From Opisthocomus hoazin (Eukaryota): a stretch of 64,000 nucleotides of DNA. Position numbers and translations under genes: made by a program. The DNA lies in NCBI RefSeq assembly GCF_030867145.1, contig NC_134414.1, positions 22,806,810 through 22,870,809 of the forward strand, read 5' to 3'. Position 1 is the first letter of the stretch; every line of letters begins with the position of its first letter. This document shows, piece by piece, positions 3,650-64,000 of the stretch. Under the pieces are notes generated by a model. The model did no database searches. It saw nothing but the letters and a program-made list of their open reading frames with translations, and was not told the origin of the DNA.

Positions 3650-5060
3650 AAAAGAGAACTGCTGCCGATGACAACGTGGCAGCCAGAGCCCGACCACTCC
3701 ACCCTGGCACCTCGAACCAGTCCCAGGGCAGTCAGCTCTCTGCCTGCGCAGACGGTGTGTCCCGGGAACACGGAGGAACGACGGGGCCAGGGGACAAAGG
3801 GCAGACAACCACATCAGCCCAAGCTTCGGCAGTCCTGCTGACCAGGAATTAACTTCTTAAAGCCTCCTCCTTCCTGAGGAGCCACCTCTCACCTAATTCT
3901 CCCGCTGTGAAAAGGCTTACACTGTCAACCAAAGTTTGAAACCCTGACTAGGAGAAACAGCGAAATACCCTTAGAAAATCGGTTTATTTCAACTGCCTTC
4001 TGTTCTGAGACGCCACTGGAAGCTTCCCAGCGAGGCACAGGTTCCCGCACGGGCAGACTCAAGCCTGCGGGGTTCACACGCCCTTTCCCCCGTCGCCTTT
4101 CCGAGACCCTTTCGAGGCTGCCCGCCAGTCTGAAGCTTCCCCTATAGCCTACGGCAGCAGCACCTTCGTGCCGCCCGGAAGAGCCGGCAGGGCTGAAGCT
4201 GACCCGCCCGGGCCCCCGAGATCGCGGGCGGGGAGACGAGCACAGCCGCGCTGGGGAGCGCGGCTGTGCTCGTCTCCCCGCCCGCGACCTCGGGGGCCCG
4301 GGCCCGGCGCTATCCTTCCCCCACGGCCGCACCGCGACGCCCTCGCAGAGGACGACCCGACGGCGCCCGAAACACCCTCACCGCGACCGCTCCGACCCGC
4401 GGCCCCTCGCAGGCAGTCCGGGCACCGCTCCTCAGGCCCCGTCCGCAGCAACGCTCCGCTCAAGCGGCCACCCCGCTCCTTCTATTACAAACCTGCCGCC
4501 ATCGCGCAGCCTCCCGGCGCCACCGACGGGGCGGCGCCCCGGCGCCGAGCATGCTGGGAGTTGTAGTCCCAAGCCGCCGCCCTCCTCGCCGGGCTGCGAG
4601 GAGGTGCTGTGGCGCTCGAACTACAGCTCCCGGGAGGAGCGGCGAAAAGGCCGTTGATGGGCGTCAACAGCGAAGCAGCTCGCCCTCAGTCGCTGCTGCC
4701 CCGGTTCCTGTCGGAGGGCATCAGGGGCGGGAAGAGGCGGCGGGTACCGAAGCGGAAGCAGCTGGGCCTGCCCCTCGCTCCTGAGGACGGCCCACGGGTG
4801 GAAGCGGCTCCCGGGTCCTCCCCGCGTCGCCGCTGGTGGCCCGTTTGGGAGAGGGGGTTTCGCTCCCGAAAGGCGGAAGGCCTCGCCGCGCGGTGCTCTT
4901 CAGCGGCTGTCGCGACACGGTGCGTGAGGAGGTTCCTGTCCAGGGAGCTGTCCGCAGGCCTTCCGGGGTGCGGCGTTTTCTGCGGGGGCGAGCCTTTGGG
5001 CATTTAGTGTGCTTTTATTGCGGCTGGTTACACCCTTTTAATCTTTAAATAGCTGCAGTG
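3650..5060. promoter_or_regulatory. CpG island, a likely bidirectional promoter for CENPJ (minus, coding begins 2890) and PARP4 (plus, non-coding exon 1 presumed here; the ATG exon begins 10635). It is very GC- and CpG-rich. The many overlapping ORFs on both strands are compositional artefacts.
   Basis: CpG density and GC content change abruptly relative to the flanking AT-rich DNA. The island lies between two divergently oriented genes. The PARP4 ATG exon is preceded by a splice acceptor (ttctcttttaacag|GAGG), which implies an upstream non-coding exon. Confidence 0.6.
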
Positions 5061-8000: not shown

Positions 8001-8329
8001 CTGTTCTAATAAATTGTATCCTGATTTGCACGTACATGAATACTAAATGCAAGCAAGTAGTTCAAACAGCATCTGCTTTCCTTTTTGCAGTCTTTAATGT
8101 AGGTGTTGTTTATTATTACTATTTTTTTATTATTTTATTTATTATTATTTTATTTGTTCTGCCTCATCCTGTGAGTCCAGGATGATTTTGGAGAGGTCAA
8201 GTATTCTAGAGTATCTGTTTTGTCCAGTTATCTCACAAATACAACTATTTGGTGTTAAGTCACTGTGGAAAATTTAAATCATCAAGTAGTTTTTCCAGAA
8301 ATACAAACAGATAGAGTAGAAACAAAGTC

Positions 8330-9228
8330 CTTACCCTCAGCAAGTTTGCTGATGACGCAAAACTGGGAGGGGTGGCTGATACACCGGAAGGCTGTGCTGC
8401 CATTCAGCAAGATATGGACAGGCTGGAGACTTGGGCAGAGAGGAACCTGGTGAAGTTCAACAAGGGCAAGTGCAGGGTCCTGCACCTGGGGAGGAACAAC
8501 CCCATGCACCAATACAGGCTCAGGGCTGACCTGCTGGGAAGCAGCTCTGTAGAGAGGGACCTGGGAGTGCTGGTGGATGACAAGTTGACCATGAGCCAGC
8601 AGTGTGCCCTGGCTGCCAAGAAAGCCAATGGGATCCTGGGGTGCATTAATAAGAATGTGGCCAGCAGGTTGAGAGAGGTTCTCCGTCCCCTCTACACTGC
8701 CCTAGTGAGGCCCCATCTAGAATACTGTGTCCAGTTCTGGGCTCCCCAGTTCAAGAAGGACAAGGAACTACTGGAGAGTGTCCAGCGGAGGGCTATGAGG
8801 ATGGTGAGGGGACTGGAGCATCTCCCCTACGAGGAGAGGCTGAGGGAGCTGGGCTTGTTCAGCCTGAAGAAGAGAAGGCTGAGAGGGGACCTTATAAATA
8901 CCTATAAATATCTGAAGGGTGGGTGTCAGGAGGATGGGGCCAGACTCTTTTCAGTGGTGCCCAGCGACAGGACAAGGGGCAATGGGCACAAACTGAAGCA
9001 GAGGAAGTTCCATCTGAACATGAGGAAGAACTTCTTCCCTCTGAGGGTGACGGAGCCCTGGAACAGGTTGCCCAGGGAGGTTGTGGAGTCTCCTTCTCTG
9101 GAGATATTCAAAACCTGCCTGAATGAGGTCCTGTGCAACCTGCTCAAGGTGACCCAGCTTTGGCAGGGCGGTTGTACTAAATGATCCCCAGAGGTCCCTT
9201 CCGACTCATACCATTCTGTGAGTCTGTG
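8330..9228 (+). mobile_element. CR1 LINE 3' portion (C-terminal part of the ORF2 reverse transcriptase plus the 3' UTR tail ending ccattctgtgagtctgtga), located in PARP4 intron 1.
   Basis: ORF 8372..9184 is a typical CR1 ORF2 C-terminus ([59 protein letters not shown]...). The CCATTCTGTGA-type terminal motif is present. Confidence 0.85.
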
Positions 9229-11878: not shown

Positions 11879-12668
11879 TGAGGTTCAACAAGGCCAAGTG
11901 CAAGAGTCCTGCACCTGGGTCGGGACAGCCCCCAGTATCAATACAGGCTGGGGAATGAAGGGATTGAGAGCAGCCCTGCCGAGAAGGACTTGGGGGTACT
12001 GGTGGATGAAAAGCTGGACATGAGCCACCAATGTGCGCTGGCAGCCCAGAAGGCCAGCCCTATCCTGGGCTGCATCAAGAGCAGCATGGCCAGCAGGTTG
12101 AGGGAGGGGATTCTGCCCTTCTGCTCCACTCTGGTGAGACCCCACCTGGAGTCCTGCGTTCAGCTCTGGGGCCCCCAGTACAGGAAAGACACCGACCTGT
12201 TGGAGTGGGTCCAGAGGAGGCCACAAAAATGATCCAAGGGCTGGAGCACCTCTGCTATGAGGAAAGACTGAGAGAATTGGGGCTGTTCAGCCTGGAGAAG
12301 AGAAGGCTCCGAGGAGACCTTATGGCAGCCTTTCGATGCTTAAAAGGCGGCTTACAAGGAAGATGGGGGCAAACTTTTTAGCAGGGCCTGTTGTGATAGG
12401 ACAAGGGACAATGGTTTTAAACTAAGGGAGGGTAGATTTAGACTAGATAGAAGGAAGCAAATTTTTACAATGAGGGTGGTGAAACACTGGCACACGTTGC
12501 CCAGAGAGGTGTTAGATGCCCCATCCCTGGAAACATTGAAGGCCAGGTTGGACGGGGCTCTGAACAAGCTGATTGAGTTGAAGATGTCCCTGCTTACTGC
12601 AGGGGGAAGTTGGACTACGTGACCTTTAAAGGTTCCTTCCAGCCCAAACCATTCTGTGATTATGTGAC
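11879..12668 (+). mobile_element. CR1 LINE 3' fragment (diverged ORF2 C-terminus plus tail ending ccattctgtgattatgtga) in the PARP4 intron.
   Basis: ORFs 11990..12232 and 12031..12381 carry CR1 ORF2-like peptides ([42 protein letters not shown]... and ...[28 protein letters not shown]...). The terminal motif is CR1-like. Confidence 0.8.
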
Positions 12669-48319: not shown

Positions 48320-49645
48320 GTTCCAGGTTCAAGGATCACCTCCTCCAAGCTCAAGAGCAGTCTATCCCAATGAACAGGAAGTCAGGCAAAAATGCCGGGA
48401 GGACTGGCATGGACAAAGATGAACAAGGAGCTCCTGGAAAAACTCAAACATAAAAAGGAAATATACTGACAGTGGAAGCAGGGCCAGGTAGCCTGGAAGG
48501 AATATAAAAAACCTATCTGAGCATGCAGAGACACCGTTAGGAAAGCTGAAGTCCTCATGGAGTTGAATCTGGCAAGGGATGTCAAAGACCACATGAAGGG
48601 CTTCTCTAAGTATGTAACTGGCAAAAGGAAGACTAGGGAAAATATAGGCCTGCTCCTGCATGGGGCAGGGGAACTGGTGACACATGACATGGAAAAGTCT
48701 GCAGTACTGAACGCCTTTGTTGCCTCAGCCTTTACTAGCAAGACCAAGCTTTGGAAATTCAAGGCCCCAGAGAGCAGGGGGGAAAGTTTAGAGCATTGAA
48801 GATGTACCCTTGGTGGAAGATGATCAGGTCATGGAATACTTAAGCGAACTGGACATACGTAAGTCCATGGGCCCTGGTGGGATGCATCCATGTCTGCAGA
48901 GAGAGCTGGCTGATGTCATTGCGAAGCCACTCTCAGAAACCTTTGAATGATCATGGCAATTGGGAGAATTGCCCAAAGACTGGAGGAAAGCCAATGTCAC
49001 TCCAGTCTTCAAAAAGGGCAAGAAGGAGGACACAGGGAACTACAGGCTGGTCAGCCTCACCTTGATCCCTGGGAAGGTGGTGGAGCAGCTAATCCTGGAA
49101 GCCATTTCCAGGCACATGAAGGATAAGAAAGTCATCAGAAGTAGCCAACATGGATTCACCATGGGGAAGTCATGCTTGACCAACTTGATAAACTTTGAAG
49201 ATGAAATGACTAACGTGGTAGATGAGGGGAGAGCAGTGGATATTGTCTATCTGGACTTCAGTAAGGCTCTTGACACTGTCTCCCAAATGATGCTCATACA
49301 GAAGCTGGTGAAGTATGGGCTGGATGAGCAGGCAGTGAGGTGGATTGAAAACTGGCTGAATGGCCAGGCCCAAAGGGTGGTGGTCAGTGGCAGGAAGTCT
49401 AGTTGGAGTCCAGAGGCTACCGATGTACTCCAGGGACCAATACTGGAGCCTGTCCTGTTCAAAATCTTCATTGGTATTCTGGATGATGGGTCAGAGTTGT
49501 ACCTTCAGAAGCAAGTTTGCTAATGATACAAAACTGGGAAGAGTGGCTGATACACCAGAGGGTCATGCTGCCATCCAGAAGTACCTTGATAGGCTGGAGA
49601 AATGGACTGACAGGAACCTTGAGAAGTTCAAAAAGGAGAACTTTT
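48320..49645 (+). mobile_element. CR1 LINE internal fragment (end of the ORF2 endonuclease region through the reverse-transcriptase core) with frameshifts and stops. It has no CR1 3' tail.
   Basis: ORF 48960..49523 has RT motifs (...RLVSLTLIPGKVVEQLILEAISRHMKDKKVIRSSQHGFTMGKSCLTNLINFEDEMTNVVDEGRAVDIVYLDFSKALDTVS...). ORF 49360..49713 reads FANDTKLGRVADTPEGHAAIQKYLDRLEKWTDRNLEKF, which aligns with the CR1 copies at 8330 and 11879. Confidence 0.8.
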
Positions 49646-50927
49646 ACAGCTTTTTGCAGTATCCAAAACAGTTCTTTCATCATCACAATTTGCTATTTCA
49701 TGTGGCATATTAAGTAAAAATAGGCCTGAATGAAGAATTTAATGGAGATGCTGGATAAAACAAGGATACCTTTTCCTATTTTTACTGTTTCGTCTTGGTG
49801 TCAACATTATCATGAAAAAAACAATACCAGTAGCATATGTACATTATAAGAGTAAGATTTTTCTGGAAATACTGCTTTTCTGAGTAACAACTCCAACATT
49901 TGCAATTAAAGATCAAAAGACAGACATGCATTCCAAAAATACCATCTGATTACAAAGCAACTATAAAATGGAATGCTGTGAGGTTACTAGAAATTCCCAG
50001 GTCAAGGACTACTTTTCAGAATAAGATAACTCAACTGGGTCAATTTAAATGTCTTTCTGTAATGCCACCTGAGTATTCCATCTGGTACATAACAGAAGCA
50101 ATATTCAGAAGAAAAAATGTGTTGCAGGTTAGCAAGAGAACACCTGTGTGATTTTGTAAGCTACTTGTTTACGAAGGGTGTCAACAGATTATTATCTGTC
50201 ATTCTGATTTTTATATATCTGTTTTTGCAGTTTTTCAGGAGATTCAGTTTCCCTTTGTCGATATGATGCCTTTCAGGAGAAACAAACTTCTAGAATGTTA
50301 TATTTGAATTACAACTGCAAATATAAGAGCTGTAATCTCATTTCTAGTCTAGGATGACTTTTTTAACCCAGTGGAACAAAACAGGAACAGTGGAACAAAA
50401 GTGGAACTTTTTTGACCCAGGAACAAAACATTGCAGACATCTTAAAGCAAAAGCACCTAGACAACACAGTGCAGTGCCATGTAGAAATACCCAGATTACC
50501 CCATTCAGCTTGGCACTGTATTAGGCTGTGTAATTTGAAGTCTTAACATGATTTTTCAGAATGCAATGTATTTTAAGCACAACTATAATAATGCTTATGT
50601 TTGCTTTCCTTTAAAGGGTGGCAATAGGATTCTGACAAAAAAAACTGCCTAAGATTTGGATTTCTATTTGTTATGTGCATTTGAACAAATCATACATACA
50701 AATATACAATGACCACCTTTATATCTCATGTGACATTAGTTACTCACAATACACTGTCCCTCAATACAGTAAAAAATGTGAAGTTAAATTTACTGGGTAT
50801 TTTTAATGTGCTGCGTTATCTGCTTATTGCCTGTTTTCAACACATCTCAAACTCACAAAGAAAAATGCACTGATTTTCTCATGCCAGGGAATTTTCAGAT
50901 TCGTAACTGTGATGCATTTTAATTTAG

Positions 50928-51077
50928 GATGCTGATGAAACTTGTTCTGCTGATGCTCCAGACATCCTGGAAATCATAGCTGAAGAAGATGTAGATTTTT
51001 TACCTTACATGAACTGGGACCGAACATCAGTGGAATCTGGCTGCTTATTTTCAAAAGGAGCTGCCTTTGGTGGCCCG
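50928..51077 (+). CDS. PARP4: PARP4 coding exon, DADETCSADAPDILEIIAEEDVDFLPYMNWDRTSVESGCLFSKGAAFGGP. Donor is GTAACT at 51078.
   Basis: Matches human ...ELIAKEDVDFLPYMSWQGE (recalled). Phase 0 at both ends. Confidence 0.75.
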
Positions 51078-52450
51078 GTAACTACACTTACTGCTAACGT
51101 TTTTGGTGTATTATCCAGTTGTGGTGCCGCATTGTATGTGTAACCATATAGTAATTGTGAAATCTGTTCAATTTTTAATTATTTTGAATGTAATTAATAT
51201 CACACAAGTATTGTGTGGAATTTTACTATAAACACCAAAATTTGGAGGAACTCGTTCCAAAAATAAAGTGCACTTAAAAAATATCATGAGTGCAGCAGAA
51301 GTTTTGAGAGAGAATATGATAATACAGACTTCTTCTCCCTCCCAGAAGAAACTAACACCTGTTAGAGCATTCTGTCATAACAATATGCTAGTGTAGACGA
51401 AGCTTTAAATTCGACTCTAAGAGACTGGGGGGAGGGAGGGGGATTTTCAAGGAAAATCAAGGCATTTGTCCATAACTAAGTCCCCACTAGCAGAGAGGCA
51501 CAGCCAAAGCAGAGAGACTACTGGGAATGGGGAGAAGCAATACTGGAAGACGAGGACATATTGATAGCATGCAATGGGACAACTGGAATGAGGGGGGAGC
51601 AATGAGAGAAACTTGAACTAGTGAAATTGGATGTTTGTTAGTTACAGTAGCTCTCTCGTGACTTTGGAAACTAAAAGAGATGCCTGCATCAGTTAGCCAG
51701 CAGCTATAATTCTGTCAGTCTGTAAGGTCTTAACAGACTAAAGCTTTACATCAGTTGTGTCGGGGACTCAAGAAAATCATTATTTGTCTATTGAGTCATG
51801 TTGTGCATGACTATGACGTGCATTTAATGTAACTCAGGAACATCATCTCAGCCTGTAGTCTGTACTGTATGAAGACTGTGAGCTATTTAGAACGGTATCT
51901 GGTTGTGCGTTCTGTAACTTAGGTAAACTCATATAAAGCCATTCTCCTGATCCTTTGGCCCAAAAATTCCTAGGCAGAAGAGTACCAGACATCTACATTG
52001 GTGTATGGTGGCAGTATAGCCCAGGCTCACTAGTTTGTATGCAGCAGCTATTGGACCTCAGCTGGTATGTGTGCCAGAATTGCAGCACAAGCAGGATCCA
52101 TGCTTCACTTTGTGTAGATCTGTCTTGTGTGTATGTACAGCAGTATGTTACAGTGGAACTTCCTTGGCTCATAATCATCATTATATTAACCATTTTTATC
52201 TTAATAATGTAAAATACCTTTCTGCTCATATTTTGTCACAGTCAAATTTTCCTCTGAGTGTCCCCAATGTAAGGTACAATAGGGGAAGATATTTTTAGTT
52301 TAACTGATACATTACTTTCATTCTGAACATATGCATGACAGTATAATGGTACGGCACACAATATAAGAAGAACTACTGTTTTGATTAAAACGAGAAAAGT
52401 ATCTTACTAATTCTGGAATTATTTTGTTTCCTTGTCATTTTACTAAACAG

Positions 52451-53137
52451 GCATGTTTCACACAAGTAGACAGTGTTTGTTCACCTAATATCCTAAGTCA
52501 GAAAGAGGAACCTGAAAGCTTCCAGCTTCAACATGAAGAAGTTCCTGTTAGTCCAAAGAGCATCTCACCACAATGCGTGGCGCAGGGCTTTGAACTTGCA
52601 AGTAGTAGTTGGAGTCTCGAATCAAATTTCCATTTTGATAGAGAAATCACAAAGGAGATATCATTTGGAACAAAGTCACCTTCACCATCTAACCTTCTTC
52701 GGCTGGAAGCTGCTGAACCTGTCTCGTTATTTGGTTTTAAACCTAAACCAGGAGGAGGAATTGACCTGACTCAACAAAAATCACTTCAGACACCTGCATG
52801 TACAAAACCAGCTGTTTGTGTGAATATTCCTGAACCTGCTCCTCCTGCTCTCCCTCGCATTTCTTTTCAAGCAGCGGTGGGAGGCGTGAAACCAGTTTAT
52901 TCTTCTTGTGGTGCTCCAATGCAGGGTGTAGGACTGTTTGGTTCAGCTATCCCTCTGTGCGGAAGTTCTGGGAAGACTGATGTTGAAAAACAAGTTATTC
53001 CCAAATTTCGTTTGTTTCAAGCTAATGGAAAAGAAGCATTGTCAGAGTCAAAGTGTAAGAAAAAGGCAAAAAAGGCAGTATTTAAGTGTGATGTTACAGC
53101 TCCTGAAGAAGGATTTGCTGAGAAGTTCGAGGTTGTG
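52451..53137 (+). CDS. PARP4: PARP4 large coding exon (229 codons, ACFTQVDSVCSPNILSQKEEPESFQLQHEEVPVSPKSISPQC...KCDVTAPEEGFAEKFEVV). This is a low-complexity, fast-evolving region and is much shorter than the corresponding human segment. Donor is GTAAGT at 53138.
   Basis: Part of ORF 52424..53170. Acceptor is ctaaacag at 52449-50, and the donor consensus falls before the ORF stop. It sits at the position of the Pro/Ser-rich large exon in human PARP4. Confidence 0.75.
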
Positions 53138-53442
53138 GTAAGTCTTCCATCAGTAGTCTTTTATATATAGGATGCTACATGTCATGTTGAAATCCAAACT
53201 GCATTCAGCTAATGAAAGCTGCCTTAAACATCTGCATTTCAAGGTTCATGGATGTACAGCCAAAAAAGAACATGGTAAGGCTGGTAATGAGGCTGCTTTC
53301 CAATTCAAGAAATCTGAACCTGAAATGCAGAAAGCATTCTTTTTGGTCGGTTGGGTTTTAGTTATGCATTCTCAAAGTGATAAATATTATATTCTGAATT
53401 CTTCACTTGTTCCTTACTACTCTAATAGGTGACTTTAAATGG

Positions 53443-54700
53443 AATTACTTTGTATCATGAAGTAGCTATATGGGCAGTGGTGGTAGAATAAGATTCTTAA
53501 TGAACAGGAACAATCTTCCTCTTTTATGCCAACGCAGAAGATTCAGCAAAGTCTTCTGTTCTGTTCAGTAAACAGGAATGAAATTCCTGAGCTCCAAAAT
53601 CAGGTGCAGTTCCCATCCTCTATTCATGCATTACCTAAAAATAAAATATGAGTAGAAGGAAACAGTATCTTCAGCCCTGCCCTGAAATAAACATTTTGTA
53701 AATGATTTTGTTTTCTTTGCTTTATAAACTGATTGTTGAAAGAGCATGATGACATCAAAGTCATGCTATTTTTTGTTCCTTTCATGGGTAATCCATCATG
53801 CCTAAGTATAAAATCAGAGCCAACAAGTGGTGGTAACATCTCCAGAGTCAAATTTTACTCTGGATTTGCCCAGTGTAAGGTACAACAAGGTAAGAATTTT
53901 TTATTTTAAATATTAGATTTTTATTCCCATTTTGAACATGCAAATGTCAGTATAATTACAATGTGCATAAGACATACAGTTCTGATTAAAAAGAGAAAAA
54001 ATGTCTCACTAACTCTGGAATTATTTCATTCCTTGTAATTTTTCTAAACAAGAACTTTCTCCAGCTGTAGCTGATGTTTGTACAAATGTTTTCCTAAGTG
54101 GGAGAGAATGAACCTTTTTCAACCAGAAAAAGAGGTTTCTTTTTAAAAAGAGGAGTGGTTTTAAAATTTGAAATGCAATTACTTTGCATCATGATGTAGT
54201 AGCTGTATGGGTAATGGTGGTAAGATTCTTGCTGAACATTATCCTCTCCAGGAACAATCAAGGCACTGTATAACAACAAAGAAAGAAAAGAATCAACAGA
54301 GAATTGGGTTGGCTACTGTAAACTGGAAAGAACTTTTTGCGCTTCAAAATCAGGTACAATACCCATAGTCTATTTGTGCATTACTTAGAAATAAAATATA
54401 GGTAGAAGAAAAAAATATTTATAGTTTGATCTTGTCCTGAGATAGAGTAAAATACATTTATAAAACGTTCATAAACAGATTTTACAAGTGTATGATGACA
54501 TCAGTCATGCTATTTTATTGCTTTCACGGGCAACTCAACAATGGATATATAAGAAACAGTATAAAATCAAGGCCAGCAAGTAGTAATACACCTCCAGAAC
54601 CTTTTTACAGCCTCCATCAGTTTGCAGCTTGGGGACTTCCTGTGACAAGTATAAAAAGATATAGGGGAAGCTAAGTGGAAGAAGTGTGCAAATAATGCAT
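53443..54700. repeat. Tandem local duplication in a PARP4 intron. Units B (about 53443-54174) and C (about 54175-54700) are degenerate copies of the ~730-bp unit whose first copy (about 52150-53442) contains the large exon. Unit B keeps only the acceptor region plus the first ~60 bp of the exon.
   Basis: Direct read-through alignments support this: 53443-53530 with 54175-54260, 53700-53870 with 54470-54610, and 52255-52500 with 53860-54110 (for example gtcaaattttcctctgagtgtccccaatgtaaggtacaat against gtcaaattttactctggatttgcccagtgtaaggtacaac). Confidence 0.65.
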
Positions 54701-56246
54701 ATTATGCAAGAAAATAAAAAGTAGTCAGGTTTTAGAAGATTGGATTGAGAGATGGTGCAGCAAGAACCTCCCCTGGCCAGTGAGACCAATTGCTCGGGAA
54801 ACTGAATGAGACTGCACTGTCCAAGAATCCTGCAGGTAGGAGTCAGAGCAGGTAATGTTTAGCTTTGTTGGTTTTGGTATGTTCTTGTGGTGGGAGAAGT
54901 CCCTGTTCCGCATAAAGCATCGCCAGTTTCATGAGCGTACCAACTGAAGGGGTGAAGTTGTGATCAACGATCAGATTGTGGGTGTCACAGTCAGTATCTA
55001 TCAGTAATAAACAGAAGGAGGTTTTCAAGAGTATTATATGATCCAAGTGAAGAAGCCACCATGGGATGCCCTCAGTGGAGACTCCTGATGTTTACTGGCA
55101 GATTGGCCATTCAGCATGGTGGTATGTTGAATTCTCTTTTGCTGGGGGTACACTAGATCTAGTAAGCCTCCCAGGTGTACCAGCTTCGTGTTCCTATATG
55201 CCGCAGAGTCCACCTAGTATTTGCATCCTCCTGGCTCTTTTTTTTAAAGCAGTACTTCATTCTGTGTGTAATTAACTTTATGTATGAAGTTCGTATGCGA
55301 AAGTAGTAAAGTATAGCCAACCTCAGCATTAAGAAAAGATACGTATTTTTCCTATATTTTTGACAGGACACTTTTATCAAATTATTTCTGAATATTGAAC
55401 CATTACAATATGCCACGTATACAATGGGGATTAGAGTAGTAAACTTGTGGCTGACTCTTGTGGGAATTAACTTCCAACGTGCAGTTCAAGACTTCTTTTT
55501 CAACAGAGTTGTCAATTGTTTAATTTTAAAAATAAAAGTTTCTCATGTTTTTTTACACTAATTAAACTTAATGTTCTGCAGATTTTCACTTTTTACTTAA
55601 TTTGGATAATTACTATCTAAACATCCTTTAAAAATCATGTACTATCTTCTCAATTACCTTAAATGAATGGTTATAAATTTTTGTCTGCAGTTAAGAGTTT
55701 TCTAAGACATAAAGCTGCAAGAACAGATAGAGTTTCAGAAGTATTTGATGTTGAAAAACTTGAACATCCTGTTGAAAGCCTGTCTTCCATCTGACCTGAG
55801 GGTAGCAAACCATTTGGCAGATAATTTTAATCATGAGAGTTGTCTAATCTTTGGCAGGGAAAGTCAGATAAAATAGGATTGGTTTTGTTAATACTGCATT
55901 TAACAACATATATAGTAAACGTAATAATTGTAAAGAGACTTTCCATTCTCAGCAGAAGAGAGGGATCCTTTATTGTTTCTTTTGAGTAAGAGGAATACTT
56001 ATTTTTCAGCACATTTAAAATTATTTTCAGAAGGAATTTGTCTGAAATAAATTTGAAAAGGCTAGTGGTATATCAAGGGTTTTTGAAGTTTAGTATTTGA
56101 ATCACCTAAACTGATGATGTGGATTTCAGGTTTTGTGTTTGTGTAAGCTTATTTAAATTAATTCTCGTGTGTCTGTTTTGTTTTTGCCAAATACATTTGC
56201 AGTGTCCTGAACGTTTGGCTTATCCATATCTTCATTTATTCCGTAG

Positions 56247-56349
56247 GATGGCTCTTGGAATCTCAGTCCACAGTTGGGAGAATTCTTGAAATTTGATGTT
56301 GATAATTTAATTAACAATTTCCTTATTAGAAAAGGCATTCAATCACTTG
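56247..56349 (+). CDS. PARP4: PARP4 coding exon, DGSWNLSPQLGEFLKFDVDNLINNFLIRKGIQSL plus G. Donor is GTAAAT at 56350.
   Basis: Matches human EDGFWKLTPELGLILNLNTNGLHSFLKQKGIQSLG (recalled). Acceptor is ttccgtag at 56245-46. Confidence 0.8.
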
Positions 56350-56866
56350 GTAAATACTTTTCTGTCATTAAAAAGCAGTATATTATGTTACATTTCCTAT
56401 CTGTATGCGTTATTACTCTGTATGTCTAGTGGAACTCTCAATAAGATATGCTCAGAATTTAAACGGAGCTCTTAAAGTTTTCAAAAGTGCCTGGTTTTAA
56501 TACTACAGTTTTTTCTCAGCTTCTCTCACAATATAGTGTCCTGACTGCTAAGCACATCTCCTGGAGAAATGTGGGGAGGATGTGAGGTAGTTGAAATAGC
56601 AATAGAGGTTCTTTTATCTCAATTATTGTATCTGCTATATTAATATCTACTGAAGTAAAAAAGGGAGGGAAAGTCTCTCCTAGGAGAGAGGTAGAAATCA
56701 CGTCTGCTTTTCACATTTCAAATAATATAAATAATATTTATATAATTCTTTCCCCCCACAGACACACTGTCTGCAGCATTCAGTATGCACTCTGCCTATA
56801 GACGGAGTCTTTGTCAATTGGTGCTCTTCGCTGGCAGCATATCAGAAAAAAAAGGGGGGGGGGGGG

Positions 56867-58725: not shown

Positions 58726-58876
58726 TGGTGTTCACTGGGCTTTTGAGGCGATCAAGAAATCAATAGAGTGGGTAAGAAGAGCTGAGAAGCGATTTCCATC
58801 TATTTGCTATCGACTTGAACTTGGGAAAGACTGGGATTCTGCCACCAAGAAGATACTGGGTATCAAGTTTATCTAA
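58726..58876 (+). CDS. PARP4: PARP4 terminal coding exon, (S)GVHWAFEAIKKSIEWVRRAEKRFPSICYRLELGKDWDSATKKILGIKFI followed by stop TAA at 58874-58876.
   Basis: Matches human NIPWAFEAIKQASEWVRRTEGQYPSICPRLELGNDWDSATKQLLGL (recalled). Acceptor is cacacag at 58724-25. Confidence 0.85.
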
Positions 58877-59308: not shown

Positions 59309-61214
59309 TATCTGCTAACATATCAGTGTTTTCAGTTGGATGATTTTGTAATTCCTACAGTGTGCCTTGAAATGCAAACAGCAGAACAGTTATTTTTCTC
59401 TTGGGATGCTATTCTTGTTGGTCATAGGTCAATTTCTGAATACATCAGTCAGTTTGTTAGGAGGAGTAAGTTCTCTTTTTCCTGTGGTTACTCTGTATTC
59501 TGATTTTATTCTGATGAAAAACTGATTAGTTTTATTTTATACTGGACCAAACACTGAAGCCTTATAACAAAATCAGACTAAAAGTGATTTATTTTAATTT
59601 AATGGGCTTTTCACGGGTGTTTGAGTGAACACATTACCTCTTCTAAATTAAGGAGCTGCACAGAATCACATTTTGGTAGTTTGTGATGTGAGGAAATGTA
59701 GTTAGAGGCTTGGTACAACTGCTTGCACTGAGGCGGGATACAGTGTGTACAGAACATACTCTACGCTTGCTTGTCCAACCACTGAGAACATTCAGAAGCA
59801 GGAGATTCCACAGCCACTGTAGGTAATGTGTTACGCTGCCCTCGACAACGGAGAATGCTCCCTAGCAGCAACGGGAAAGTGTTGTAAGAGGTTACTAAAG
59901 AAAACTGTGGAGTCTCTTCCATAGATGTTTCTATGAGAATATAAGCAAATGTCTGCCAAAGGGTGGAGTAGATACACTTGATCTTGTAGAGGAGGTTGCT
60001 AAGAGGGATAGGCTGGGGTCCTTCTGCTTCCACCGTGCTCTGAATCCTTGTCATGTGTGTAAGATACTGGCTCTTTTTAGTAAACAATACAAAGGAAAGA
60101 TTTGTACTACACTTTCTATTTGAGAGGAGCTGGGATACCAGTTTCTTAAAAGCAAGAAAGACTCCTTAACGCGGACAATGATAAACTAGCTTCTACATCT
60201 GCTGTGAAGTCTTTGCAGGGTCAAGTGCTGCATTACTAGGGTTACCTTAGAAAGGAAGTGCTGGCACAAATATAAATAAAAGAAATATTTTTTTTTCCCC
60301 TTTCACTGCAGTTAATTATTCAAATAGTTTGGTGTTTTCACTGTTGCAAGGACACATCCCGTGCGGGTATGCATGAGAAGCCCGAGCTTGGAGTGCTGTG
60401 TGTTCCTTAAGGAGTTGTGTCCGAGGCATCTAAACGCTCCCCCTCTCGCAGAGGCAGTTGAGTAAGCAAATACGGGGTGTGGTTTATTTGCTTTTCCTTA
60501 CAAGATTGTCTTTCTTTCCTCCTGCACGTTACATGAAAAAAAAGGCGATCATTTGAACGTGCAAAATACTACGAAATTCAAAGTGGTTGTGTTTCCTCGT
60601 GCGAAACTCCGTCGTCCTGAGGGGTCGGCGTGCCCCTCCCCCGTGCGGTTCCCCACAGCCTCACCCGGCGGGGGGCGAGGAACGCCTTCGCACCGGGGCA
60701 CTGGCCACGCTCTGGGCCGGACCCCCGTCCCCCGGCGGAAAGGTCAGCGGCGTCGGGGTGCCTCGGGGCGCCCCGGTAACCGCCGCCCTCCTCGGGAGGA
60801 GAGGGCCCGCTGAGGCGCCAGGCAGCCGGACCCCTCGCCCGGGGGCCGCGCAGCCTTCCCTCACGCTTTCCCCTCGAGGCAGGGGCCCCCGGGACAGCGC
60901 GCAGACGGGCGGCCCCACCGCTTTCATGGCTCTGCGGCGGGCGTCGGGCCGCAGGGCACGGCAGCGCGGCACCGCCCGCCCCGGGGCGCGCGCACCCTCC
61001 GCAACGCGGGCCCGCCAGGACCCCGCACCCCCCCCGACCCTGCCAGCGGGCCGCCGGGCTCAGGGCACGAGGGCCTCCGGGCGCGGGGCCCCGCCCCTGT
61101 GCGTCATGGGCTGGCGGGGCGCCGATTGGCTGCGGCCGCCGCCTCTCTCCCTCCTGGCCCGGCGGTGGATGTCGCAGCCGCTTTTCACCGTTGTCGTTTG
61201 AAATTCGGCCCAAA

Positions 61215-61454
61215 ATGGCGGCGACGACCGGGAGCGGGGCTGAGGCGGCGGCGGCCAGGCTGGAGGGGGCGGAGGAAGAGGAGGATACGGCGGCCGCGGC
61301 GGAGGAGGATGAGGAGGACGGGGAGGAAGACAGCAGCGGGGCTGGCAAGGCGGCGGGAGCAGCCGGCGGGGAGGCCGGCGGCGGCGGCGGGGAGAGCGAG
61401 GAGGAGGAGGACGTGTTCGAGGTGGAGAAGATCCTTGACGTGAAGACCGAGGGG
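61215..61454 (+). CDS. MPHOSPH8: MPHOSPH8 (MPP8) first coding exon, MAATTGSGAEAAAARLEGAEEEEDTAAAAEEDEEDGEEDSSGAGKAAGAAGGEAGGGGGESEEEEDVFEVEKILDVKTEG (acidic N-terminus plus the start of the chromodomain). Donor is GTGAGC at about 61455. The exact phase is uncertain by 1-2 nt.
   Basis: Part of ORF 61191..61751. The start has a Kozak-like context (caaaATGG). The motif EDVFEVEKILDVKTEG matches the MPP8 chromodomain start (human GEDVFEVEKILDMKTEGGKVLYKVRWKGY, recalled). Confidence 0.7.
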
Positions 61455-61494
61455 GTGAGCGCGCGGCGCTGCCGCCTGTCAGCGCGGCGCCCCG

Positions 61495-61825
61495 GGGCGG
61501 CGGGTCCCGGAGGGAGGGAAAGAGGAAGGGAGGGAGGCAGGCGGCGGGTCCCTGAGGGAGGGAGGCAGGGAGGCGGCGGGTCCCTGAGGGAGGGAGGGAG
61601 GGACGGAGGCAGGCGGCGGGTCCCGGAGGGAGGGAGCCAGGCAGGCAGGCAGGCAGGCGGCGAGTCCCTGAGGGAGGGAGGCAGGGAGGCAGGCAGGCGG
61701 CGGGTCCCGGAGGGAGGGAAGCAGGGAGGCAGGCAGGCGGCGAGTCCCTGAGGGAGGGAGGCAGGGAGGCAGGCAGGCGGCGGGTCCCGGAGGGAGGGAA
61801 GCAGGGAGGGAGGGAGGGCGGGCGG
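61495..61825. repeat. G-rich minisatellite, about 8 tandem units of about 40 bp, consensus close to GCGGCGGGTCCC(G/T)GAGGGAGGGAGGCAGGGAGGCAGGCAG. It lies in MPHOSPH8 intron 1 just after the first donor.
   Basis: The repetition is directly visible. Units alternate between the cccggagggagggaagcagggaggcaggcaggcggcgggt and ccctgagggagggaggcagggaggcaggcaggcggcgagt variants. Confidence 0.85.
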
Positions 61826-64000
61826 CGGCTGCGCCCGGCGGCGGCGGGGCTGGCGGGCGGCCCGGCCGCCCCCTGCCTGGGGCCGTTGGCCGCCCCGGGG
61901 TCGGGTTTCGGGCCGCTCCCCGAGGAGGTGCCCGGCGGCGCGGGGTCGGGAGCGGGCGGCAGGGCGGGCCCCGGCGCGCTCGGCTGCTCTTCCCTCGCTG
62001 TCTGTGCGCGCAGGCGGCGCAGGCAGAGGCTGCTGCTCGGGCAGATTTTCCTGCACGATTCTTTTATAGCTGGACGAGAACCATGCAAAAATAGTGGCTC
62101 CGTTGTAATTGTAACTTAAGCCACGTTGTGCGTAATTTTGTAAGTAAGCTTTTTGACTAAAGAGAATAAATCTAGGGTATCTTCACTAAGTTCGTTGGTT
62201 GTTTTTTATGTCTGCATTGTTAAACTACTTGCTCTTACGGGTGGATTGCAGTAGTGTTTTGATGTAAAGTGCTTGCAGAAATGGACAGGATCGAACATAA
62301 CAGAGAACTTGGAGGTGGTTTCAAAGTATGTGTAGTGAGAGTCTGTTTACTGGCGTATAAAGTATATGAAGACCTCTTAAAATAACTTCCAGTTAAAAAA
62401 AAAACCCTAGCTATAGTGATTTTGGCTTTGTTTAGACAGAAGTATCATACCTTCTTTCTTTGGAAGCAGCCTAGACTGGTTGAAGTTTTTCTAAAAATTA
62501 TTTTTTGTATTTGAGGTTTAGGAAATAAGACAGCTATTTTTTAGTCTGAAAATAAGGGGGTTTTTTAACCTAATTTTTATTTTTCATTTTATGTTTCAGT
62601 CAGGTACATGATAGTATAAAATTCTGCCTGTTCAGTGTAAAACATAAGGGTTTTGGAAACCTTAGGTTGGAGAACCTTCAGATCAAGAATTTCTTATGTA
62701 TTTGTGATGCTGTTGTGAGTAGGCTCTATCTTGGCTGAAATAATCTTGATGGCTTAAGAATGTTATGCTTTAGAGGTAATACAGTATTTGCCTCTATGAA
62801 AGTAAGTGTTGGCTGAAATAATAAGTCAGGCTTCAAAACAAGAGCACTCCATTTCTTCTTTTTCCTTTTTTCCGCCCGCCCCCAAATGATGGAACTTAAA
62901 ATCTGTATACTGGGGGCAGCGTGGGGAGTTGCACCACTCCACACACTTCTGAAGAATACCACAATACATCAAGTACCATCTCTTAGAAATGCCATTGACG
63001 TGCTAGTGAAAAGGTGTCTTATGCTCCTTCTTGCTGTCATCTTCCTCTGAGCAGGCCATTCTGCAGCAGGTTCTGAGCTGTATGCACTCGAGGTTTCCAG
63101 ACCAGGTCAGTGCAGTTAGCTTTACTGTGTGCCTGTGCCTTACCCAGTATGTGTTGGCTGTGGCTTTGTAGCAGGGCTCCAATTGCATCTGGTCACCTTT
63201 CTGTTGCTCTTAAATGGGGGCCGTGCTCCTGTGCTTTGGAAGCACAGGGCAAGAGAGATACTCACTCTCAGGCCTAACTTCTGAAATGTCTGAAGAAAGC
63301 TGTGTGTTACGTTCAGTGGAGTATGTTTTACTTGGTCTGCTTCAGACCAGTGGTTCCTAGCTTGCGGTTTCCCAGGTCTGATGCAACATCCGAGCAGATA
63401 CAGAGTCTGCCACTGTCCAGCACAGCACAAGGCCAGTCGGTGTGTTGCTGTGTCACAGCTGCAGAAGCAGGAGAGCTGGAGAGCACCGCACAGAGAAGCT
63501 CTTGTCATTCGCAGTCCTGGTGTTGCTGGAACTGGTAGTAGTGGTAGCAGGAGAGACAGCACTCCTAGGATGGGATTGGGCTGGTGAGTTAAACCTGCTG
63601 ATAAATGAAACAGTGACGTGTCCTACCTAAGAGATCGAGCAATAACAGTCTGGGAATGTTTCCTCTTGGTACACCTAGAAGGCCTTTCATACTGCACTAA
63701 AACAACAGACTCCAACGCAAATTGTGGCATTGCCCTTTCCATAGGAGTTGGTTCTAGCCCATCACTGGTTCTCGCAGAAGCTACAGCACTATAAAAATGC
63801 TTGGAAGTGTTCCATTATTTGTAAGTGGTAGGAAAGAAATAACAACGTTGAGTAAAATAGTGTTGACGGGTGATTGTAAGGCTGTGAATGTATCTTTAGT
63901 ATGATGATCAATCTCCTGTCTTTACTTCAGCTGCATTTTTGTGTCAGTCTCTACATGCTGGACGTAGAGACATTGAACAGCCAAATAGTTGTAAATTTGC

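Follow-up and report, generated by a model that had tools for sequence, protein, structure and literature searches.

The PARP4 locus of the hoatzin

The window, a 64-kb stretch of DNA, belongs to Opisthocomus hoazin and carries PARP4; the RefSeq protein XP_075274822.1 maps to it at approximately 100% (tblastn). Pfam searches of the exon translations revealed, all on one strand, the domain order BRCT, PARP catalytic, VIT, VWA and C-terminal MVP-interaction region. The BRCT domain matches the human PARP4 BRCT chain 9dev_A (E value of 5e-27), and the C-terminal part aligns with human PARP4 chain 11jf_P. A first-pass annotation of this DNA had correctly recognized PARP4 and a 687-nt exon at 52451-53137, as borne out by the open reading frame, the splice sites and RefSeq, but had taken the source to be a galliform. 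Retroelement fragments lie in the PARP4 introns of the window, for example an RVT_1 match at 48951-49520.

The 687-nt exon, here referred to as E1a, has an AG acceptor, a GTAAGT donor and 229 open codons (Table 1). The exon before it aligns to human PARP4 residues approximately 1186 to 1214. Downstream follow a small exon, E2b, which is 102 nt long and flanked by AG/GT in six species, and then an exon that aligns to human residues 1583 to 1616, the start of the MVP-interaction region. The orthologous open reading frame in the avian contig L011 gave a weak match to PF26156 (PARP4_MVP-ID). In XP_075274822.1, E1a is spliced directly to E2b (...EKFEVV/EQSRHCITT...ALQNQ/DGSWNL, slashes marking exon boundaries), and the hoatzin PARP4 proteins in the cluster comprise only the 1642-amino-acid form.

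Two adjacent copies of a two-exon segment

Self-blastn of the locus aligned 52237-52513 with 53843-54115 (71% identity, E value of 4e-39, offset of 1606) and 53434-53846 with 54168-54598 (67% identity, E value of 3e-47, offset of 734-752). Smith-Waterman alignments gave the two repeat segments scores of 105 and 124, with means of 12 (standard deviation of 1.5-1.7) for shuffled sequences. The similarity is thus far above chance, and it defines two collinear, adjacent copies in the same orientation. Unit boundaries were set against the single-copy emu locus, in addition to self-blastn and Smith-Waterman. A global alignment in which gap extension cost little was dropped, as it strewed spurious matches over the exon body.

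Table 1. Coordinates of the duplicated PARP4 segment, its parts and the neighboring exons within the window
Feature	Position	Strand	Remarks
PARP4 exon before the large exon	50928..51077	+	aa 1202-1251, '...EDVDFLPYMNWD...'; tblastn XP_075274822.1 100%; outside the duplication
Duplication unit, copy A	52241..53846	+	1606 bp; U1 + E1a + A-only intron + D1
U1, intron upstream of the large exon	52241..52450	+	polypyrimidine tract and CAG acceptor; ~73% vs 53847-54050
E1a, functional large PARP4 exon	52451..53137	+	687 nt, aa 1252-1480, phase 0-0; 100% RefSeq match
Intron found only in copy A	53138..53433	+	counterpart deleted from copy B with ~580 nt of exon body
D1, downstream segment of copy A	53434..53846	+	67% vs 54168-54598; own clade in the downstream-segment tree
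psiE2a, paralogous small-exon copy	53508..53603	+	96 nt, 'EQSSSFMPTQKIQQSLLFCSVNRNEIPELQNQ'; skipped in XP_075274822.1
Duplication junction	53843..53848	+	D1 end '...CTCCAGA' joined to 'G TCAAATTTT...', U2 start; emu-flank alignments
Duplication unit, copy B	53847..54598	+	752 bp; U2 + psiE1b + D2
U2, copy of the upstream intron segment	53847..54050	+	alignment; separate U2 clade
psiE1b, remnant of the first ~100-105 nt of the large exon	54051..54146	+
D2, downstream segment of copy B	54168..54598	+	orthologue of the only downstream segment in bobwhite, L005 and L011
E2b, functional small PARP4 exon	54252..54353	+	102 nt, aa 1481-1514, 'EQSRHCITTKKEKNQQRIGLATVNWKELFALQNQ', phase 0-0
Next PARP4 exon	56247..56351	+	aa 1515-1549, 'DGSWNLSPQLGEFL...'; outside the duplication

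These alignments confirm the local tandem duplication that the first-pass annotation had seen in PARP4, including the large linker exon, and they agree with its statement that the second copy realigns with the upstream intron, the acceptor and the exon start while the exon body is missing. The proposed architecture, a triplication of an approximately 730-bp unit, had to be replaced. There are two copies only, of 1606 and 752 bp; an out-of-phase reading had made copies B and C out of the downstream part of copy A and both halves of copy B. Approximately 100 nt of the exon remain in copy B, rather than 60, and the 52-bp apparent spacer at 54116-54167 is likewise exon-derived. The stretch missing from copy B amounts to approximately 870 bp instead of 600 bp and comprises, besides the exon body, approximately 296 bp of intron. 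A search for a counterpart of this intron stretch (53138..53433) in copy B or its flanks scored 15 against a shuffle mean of 13.6, and the stretch is present in emu and all other species compared. The downstream segment of both copies also contains a second PARP4 exon, E2, which had been missed.

Self-blastn of the locus gave no line near an offset of 1460, and when a third upstream or downstream segment was sought on both sides, the scores were 11-15 against shuffle means of 12-13. No further repeat copies were found in the 64-kb window, where the best other match had an E value of 0.02, and no Rfam family matched 51500-55500. Tandem Repeats Finder detected no relevant repeat, as the period is longer than the 500 bp that the program allows and the copies have diverged by approximately 30%.

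Comparison with other birds

We compared the locus with those of emu (L012), bobwhite (L010) and five further Logan contigs (L001, L002, L004, L005 and L011). Emu has a single copy, in which a 496-nt intron separates a 672-nt E1 from an 87-nt E2, and no self-repeat or remnant of a duplication was found there. The emu locus is collinear with the hoatzin locus, both flanks match, and the hoatzin junction resolves into the end of the unit joined to its start. Alignments against the left and right emu flanks revealed microhomology of at most 1-3 nt at the junction and no flanking repeat.

In neighbor-joining trees, which were rooted on emu by assumption, the copies cluster by type (A or B) and not by species. 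Distances from emu to the A copies were 0.15-0.20 for the upstream and 0.24-0.27 for the downstream segment, and those to the B copies were 0.19-0.22 and 0.28-0.30, respectively; both sets are smaller than the distances between A and B copies. For bobwhite, L005 and L011, the upstream segment falls with U1 and the downstream segment with D2.

Copy B is more eroded in bobwhite, L004, L005 and L011 than in hoatzin. These four loci consist of U1, E1 and intron, followed by 37-43 bp of U2, the 3′ part of psiE1b and then D2, and D1 is deleted from 53444 on. Their remnants are nevertheless recognizable, as in L005, where the remnant aligned to its own exon with a score of 28 against a shuffle value of 11.6 ± 1.8. 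A bobwhite-type short form as the ancestral state was considered and rejected, given the tree topology and the U2 and exon 5′ remnants, which lie there in the right order. At its 5′ end (53444), this 542-bp deletion comes within approximately 10 bp of the site that corresponds by homology to the 3′ limit of the deletion in copy B (53434).

Two pseudo-exons in the E1-E2 intron

All species share a 1-nt insertion in psiE1b that produces an in-frame TGA near codon 20. The remnant has also lost the original donor, and a 12-bp deletion in it is specific to the hoatzin clade. The CAG acceptor of U2 is intact in L001 and L002 but has changed to CAA(G) in hoatzin, leaving an AG shifted by 1 nt. The suggestion that the copy B remnant could act as a cryptic exon is weakened by the mutated acceptor, the TGA, the deleted donor, divergence at the intron rate and the RefSeq protein, which skips it, and psiE1b is a weak candidate for such an exon. 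Its sequence is 80% identical to the 5′ end of the emu exon, compared with 71% for the living E1a.

The psiE2a copy is open in hoatzin and retains splice sites (cag/.../gtgcag); however, 16 bp of its polypyrimidine tract are deleted, and R and P stand in place of the conserved Trp and Phe residues of E2. Its orthologue carries a 1-nt deletion leading to a TGA in L001 and a donor changed from GT to GG in L002, so that psiE2a is disabled in two of the three hoatzin-clade species, and it is absent through deletion from L004, L005, L010 and L011. Neither psiE2a nor psiE1b keeps frame and splice sites across species, as paralogous exons in use would, and the pseudo-exon regions have diverged as fast as the introns. 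No annotated product with a second exon copy was found in the hoatzin RefSeq PARP4 or its protein cluster. On the basis of the RefSeq model and the disabling mutations in orthologues, both pseudo-exons are probably skipped in hoatzin, and they appear to be without function.

Evolution of the large exon

Exon 30 of human PARP4 is a single large exon of approximately 360 amino acids that encodes a rapidly evolving disordered region, with a human-rhesus dN/dS of 1.75 (Daugherty et al. 2014, PLoS Genet; PMC4038475). Positive selection on PARP4 is stated there to extend to birds, and a duplication of exon 30 is not mentioned (PMC4038475). Hoatzin E1 resembles this exon in being the largest exon, located between the same conserved flanks (human residues approximately 1214 and 1583), and bird E1 shares with it a dN/dS above 1 and a species-variable length, although the bird region is shorter (224-274 amino acids). 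A phmmer search of E1 against PDB sequences, full-length human PARP4 among them, gave no match; because E1 has no detectable similarity to the human region, the orthology rests on the flanking exons.

The E1 reading frame is open in seven species at lengths of 672-822 nt. The dN/dS was 1.2-2.3, with Fisher P values of 0.015-0.0003 in three hoatzin comparisons (L001, L002 and L004), and exon divergence reached 19-20% against approximately 10% in introns (209/2043 non-exon positions, or 10.2%, between hoatzin and L002). The fast evolution and variable length of E1 are already published. The duplication had been proposed as a hotspot of exon-size evolution; however, E1 length varies by in-frame indels, and, in L002, by a 45-bp internal tandem repeat, and the coding sequence gained nothing from the duplication.

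Origin and fate of the duplication

Collectively, these data are best explained by one intragenic tandem duplication of a PARP4 segment of approximately 1.6-1.7 kb carrying E1 and E2, now a decayed relic, a reading to which we assign a probability of about 0.85. The segment would have comprised the large linker exon, orthologous to human exon 30, and the next small exon. The cross-bird comparison that had been recommended for dating, with a single copy in emu and a duplicated locus in bobwhite, places the event after the emu split and before the separation of hoatzin and bobwhite, probably on the Neognathae stem, a placement that depends on emu, bobwhite and hoatzin. Since the junction shows microhomology of 1-3 nt at most, an origin by a non-homologous or replication-slippage event is suggested.

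From a probable starting order of E1a-E2a-E1b-E2b, each exon has survived in only one copy, so that the protein would have remained unchanged. E1b probably lost its approximately 870 bp (exon body, donor and approximately 296 bp of intron) ahead of the divergence of the neognath lineages compared here, while E2a presumably decayed and was removed outright by the 542-bp deletion in the clade of L004, L005, bobwhite and L011. In the RefSeq model E1a is now spliced to E2b, which restores the original exon set and protein. The sole lasting effect would be a lengthening of the E1-E2 intron from approximately 370-500 to 1114 nt, with two pseudo-exons inside it. The feature is an ordinary evolutionary relic.

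Several other readings of the repeat have to be weighed against this history. A tandem triplication of an approximately 730-bp unit, with the exon body lost from both downstream copies, is very unlikely. Offsets of 734-753 bp do exist for the downstream segment, and D1 followed by U2 superficially resembles one such unit, but the upstream segment with the exon start occurs only twice (offset 1606), as does the downstream segment, searches for a third segment stay at the shuffle level with no alignment at approximately 1460, and the emu-defined units measure 1606 and 752 bp. We consider it equally hard to credit that a short ancestral exon of approximately 60-100 nt was duplicated and that the exon in copy A later grew by approximately 600 nt, the second scenario offered by the first-pass annotation. 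The spread of bird exon lengths and the internal 45-bp expansion in L002 show that this exon can grow; however, in the unduplicated emu the exon is already 672 nt long, with homology over its full extent, and human exon 30 holds approximately 360 amino acids in one exon, so the large exon predates the duplication. The gap in copy B also takes the donor and an intron stretch that emu possesses, as a deletion would. The same comparisons favor the other scenario offered, in which the unit was duplicated and the exon then decayed by deletion in the copy. That the similarity reflects two insertions of an interspersed repeat is extremely unlikely: retroelement fragments such as the RVT_1 match do occur in the PARP4 introns here, but the repeat has no other copy in the 64 kb and no Rfam match, runs through the acceptor into coding sequence, includes a second exon and keeps the order and orientation of emu, which is single-copy at the orthologous site.

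The duplication could also be older than crown birds, with emu having reverted to one copy through unequal crossing-over. Homologous recombination can collapse tandem duplicates, and the emu segments are slightly closer to the A than to the B copies; nevertheless, this is unlikely, as emu retains no remnant, its distances to both copies are smaller than those between A and B, as expected of an outgroup, and an extra and precise event would be needed. It is rather improbable, too, that the duplicated exons are still used in hoatzin, psiE2a as a 32-codon cassette and psiE1b as a cryptic poison exon regulating PARP4 output. For psiE2a, an open frame of phase 0-0, a length divisible by three and the AG and GT sites favor use, and psiE1b has a strong polypyrimidine tract, a CTAAAC branch-like motif, an AG and possible GT donors downstream, such as GTG/GTAAGA near 54212. 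Against this stand the broken psiE2a orthologues in L001 (frameshift and TGA) and L002 (donor GG), the shortened polypyrimidine tract and the R and P replacements in hoatzin itself, the intron-rate divergence and the hoatzin PARP4 proteins of the cluster, all of which are without the pseudo-exons; moreover, 32 stop-free codons are not unusual by chance. Splicing of psiE2a in hoatzin, perhaps in no other species, as an alternative or extra cassette just upstream of the MVP-interaction region, or of psiE1b as a stop-containing poison exon, is judged quite improbable; if true, the duplication would provide control, specific to the lineage, over the isoforms or dosage of a vault protein linked to immunity.

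Relation to known systems and significance

Intragenic tandem exon duplication is a class reportedly surveyed by Kondrashov and Koonin in 2001 and by Letunic, Copley and Bork in 2002. The hoatzin case resembles this class, including its decaying members, in that the copies are adjacent, in the same orientation and contain exons with splice sites, the small exon is of phase 0-0 and a multiple of three, and one copy of each exon is now an intronic pseudo-exon. It differs in that the duplication took in two exons at once and the subsequent losses struck opposite copies (E1 in B and E2 in A), so that the gene is back to exactly its original exon set, and in that PARP4 fixed neither a mutually exclusive nor an additive exon pair. 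Like mutually exclusive exons, psiE2a and E2b are adjacent paralogues of the same phase, both with AG/GT; in contrast to such exons, they differ in length (96 versus 102 nt), the annotated product uses only E2b, and psiE2a is broken in sister species and missing from others.

The importance of the finding is modest: it is a clean and datable two-exon tandem duplication that was undone by the loss of exons from different copies, and it illustrates that introns can lengthen and gain pseudo-exons while the protein is unaltered. The stretches 53508-53603 and 54051-54146 look like exons yet lie outside the known product, which should serve as a warning in annotation. As rare genomic changes, the duplication itself, present or absent, and the two later deletions of 542 bp and approximately 60 bp are possible phylogenetic markers deep in the avian tree. 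[quoted passage not shown]

Gene identity and position of the large exon

The exon translations on the forward strand matched domains in the order BRCT, PARP catalytic, VIT, and VWA, and the N terminus matched human PARP4 BRCT structures (9dev_A, E value of 5 × 10−27). Furthermore, the open reading frame of the large exon (E1) fell into one cluster with the RefSeq protein "PARP4 [Opisthocomus hoazin]" (XP_075274822.1, 1642 amino acids [aa]), which mapped onto the window exon by exon with ~100% identity. These data confirmed the first-pass annotation of the gene as PARP4 but not its galliform host, as the RefSeq mapping identifies the window as hoatzin. The preceding exon (50928 to 51077) aligned to human PARP4 at ~1186 to 1214 and the exon at 56247 to 56351 at 1583 to 1616; no similarity of E1 itself to human PARP4 was detectable. 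[quoted passage not shown] 2014, PMC4038475). It should be noted that the bobwhite protein OXB69769.1 (Colinus virginianus, AWGT02003719.1), labelled "UNVERIFIED_CONTAM: hypothetical protein," is clearly a piece of PARP4 from the bird itself and comprises E1 and the exon that precedes it.

A local repeat of two unequal copies

Self-comparison of positions 50500 to 56500 yielded exactly two off-diagonal alignments, 52237-52513 with 53843-54115 (offset of ~1606, 71% identity, E value of 4 × 10−39) and 53434-53846 with 54168-54598 (offset of 734 to 752, 67% identity, E value of 3 × 10−47). Their Smith-Waterman scores were 105 and 124, where shuffled sequence averaged 12, and both series were recovered by a separate repeat finder; Tandem Repeats Finder and Rfam returned nothing relevant. 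The locus had initially been described as a tandem triplication of a ~730-bp unit. Nothing aligned at an offset near 1460 in this region, candidate third copies, sought as upstream-type sequence beyond 54598 and as downstream-type sequence ahead of 52237, scored 11 to 15 versus 12 to 13 for shuffled sequence, and no further copies occurred within the 64-kb window. The repeat is therefore real and local but consists of two copies, A and B, whose unequal lengths (Table) replace the proposed unit. Positions 52514 to 53433, which span the exon body and the next 296 bp of intron, have no counterpart anywhere nearby.

The initial description had also missed a second exon. In the hoatzin RefSeq protein, as in the emu PARP4 protein fragment P0006, a single small exon (E2) separates the large exon from "DGSWNL...", and RefSeq joins E1 of copy A (E1a) straight to E2 of copy B (E2b). 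Since small-exon copies are found in both downstream segments, D1 (copy A) and D2 (copy B), the duplicated unit held two exons, E1 and E2.

Table. Features of the hoatzin PARP4 locus (window coordinates; psi, decayed exon copy)
Feature	Position	Description
Copy A	52241-53846	1606 bp
E1a	52451-53137	229 codons; CAG acceptor, GTAAGT donor; phase 0-0
psiE2a	53508-53603	paralogous small-exon copy within D1; encodes EQSSSFMPTQKIQQSLLFCSVNRNEIPELQNQ; flanks cag and gtgcag
Copy B	53847-54598	752 bp
psiE1b	54051-54146	counterpart of first ~105 nt of E1
E2b	54252-54353	small exon within D2; encodes EQSRHCITTKKEKNQQRIGLATVNWKELFALQNQ; flanks ctctccag and gtacaa
Retroelement fragment	48951-49520 (+)	PARP4 intron; RVT_1 reverse-transcriptase domain, E value of 5 × 10−16
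CR1-like fragments	~8315-9181, ~12000-12400 (+)	PARP4 introns; look CR1-like by eye; no Pfam hit where searched
GC-rich block	4001-5000	72% GC; long ORFs on both strands
GC-rich block	60001-62000	57-78% GC; long ORFs on both strands

Each copy retains one intact exon

Orthologous bird loci were reached through a profile search with the large exon, and L001, L002, L004, L005, bobwhite L010 (GCA_000599465.2), L011, and emu L012 were compared. E1a is intact in seven species (672 to 822 nt), and E2b is 102 nt long with AG/GT borders in six. In L001, psiE2a has lost 1 nt and contains a TGA; in L002, its GT donor has become GG; and in hoatzin its reading frame is still open and 16 bp of the polypyrimidine tract are gone. 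As psiE1b derives from the start of E1, the apparent 52-bp spacer is exon derived. A 1-nt insertion common to all species creates an in-frame TGA in psiE1b, a 12-bp deletion is limited to the hoatzin clade, the hoatzin acceptor reads CAA(G) in place of CAG, and the original donor was lost in a deletion of ~870 bp. Identity between hoatzin and L001/L002 (91 to 98% in pseudo-exon regions, 87 to 92% in flanking intron) gave no sign of constraint on the pseudo-exons. A contig of JGI metagenome 3300000035, 99.77% identical to positions 49013 to 56854, is hoatzin host DNA; among its differences is a CCT>CTT polymorphism inside psiE2a.

The psiE1b relic is 80% identical to the 5′ end of the emu exon and the living hoatzin exon 71% (n of ~95, P = 0.13, not significant). 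These values fit a relic that evolves at a slower pace than an exon under positive selection, and psiE1b seems to have kept an earlier sequence state of this fast-evolving exon. Altogether, the feature is a relic of a known kind, old and apparently neutral, of minor use as a phylogenetic marker and an annotation caveat.

Age and origin of the duplication

Both copies are present in L001 and L002, whose introns are ~90% identical to hoatzin, and they cluster by type and not by species (A-A and B-B, 85 to 93% identity; A-B, 73 to 80%). L004, L005, bobwhite, and L011 share a further eroded copy B: upstream segment U1, E1, and intron to 53443 are followed by 37 to 43 bp of the copy B upstream segment U2 (53986 to 54022/28) and then by 54083 through D2. 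These loci have lost 542 bp, comprising D1 and the 5′ portion of U2, as well as ~60 bp that held the pseudo-acceptor; in L005, the remnant can still be aligned to that locus's own exon (score of 28 versus 11.6 ± 1.8). The emu locus is a single unit (E1, 672 nt; intron, 496 nt; E2, 87 nt) without an internal repeat. In neighbour-joining trees rooted on emu, which is an assumption, the four species of the eroded type clustered with U1 by their upstream segments and with D2 by their downstream segments, the pattern predicted if a single duplication occurred and the two exons were then lost from opposite copies. Under this rooting, the single emu unit and the copy-type trees would place the duplication after the emu split and before the hoatzin/bobwhite split. 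That emu once had the second copy and secondarily lost it is regarded as improbable.

Two routes to the unequal exons had been proposed, deletion from the copy or expansion in copy A. The long exon is ancestral, because unduplicated emu has it and, in humans, a single exon of ~360 aa covers this region; the exon body was deleted from copy B, and expansion is discarded. At the junction (…CTCCAGA/G/TCAAATTTT…), comparison with the emu flanks revealed at most 1 to 3 nt of microhomology, which suggests a non-homologous origin of the duplication.

The 542-bp deletion has its 5′ breakpoint after 53443. The older copy B deletion has its 3′ breakpoint at a homologous position (53434/54168) no more than ~10 bp away. 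This closeness (53434 to 53444/54168) may be coincidental or may mark a fragile, A/T-rich site (TTTAAATGGA).

Exon length and rate

The proposal that duplication made the locus a hotspot of exon-size evolution was not supported. E1 length differs through in-frame indels, and the 822 nt of L002 (618 to 1439), versus 687 in hoatzin, reflect ~3 added in-frame 45-bp (15-aa) tandem units ("SVAPMQGxxFGSAxx"), a separate, internal route to length change. Pairwise dN/dS of E1 was 1.2 to 2.3 (Fisher P of 0.015 to 0.0003 in the three hoatzin comparisons tested), and hoatzin diverged from L001/L002 by 19 to 20% in the exon versus ~10% in surrounding noncoding sequence, about twofold (P ≤ 10−7). These rates are in line with the positive selection published for PARP4 exon 30; such rate and length features are thus known from earlier work on PARP4, and the duplication contributed to neither.

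Other features of the window

The two GC-rich blocks, which had no Pfam match, are presumably CpG islands. One lies several kilobases upstream of where the mapped PARP4 coding exons begin; the other, just beyond the 3′ end of the gene (last coding exon ending at 58873), may represent a neighbouring gene's promoter or first exon.
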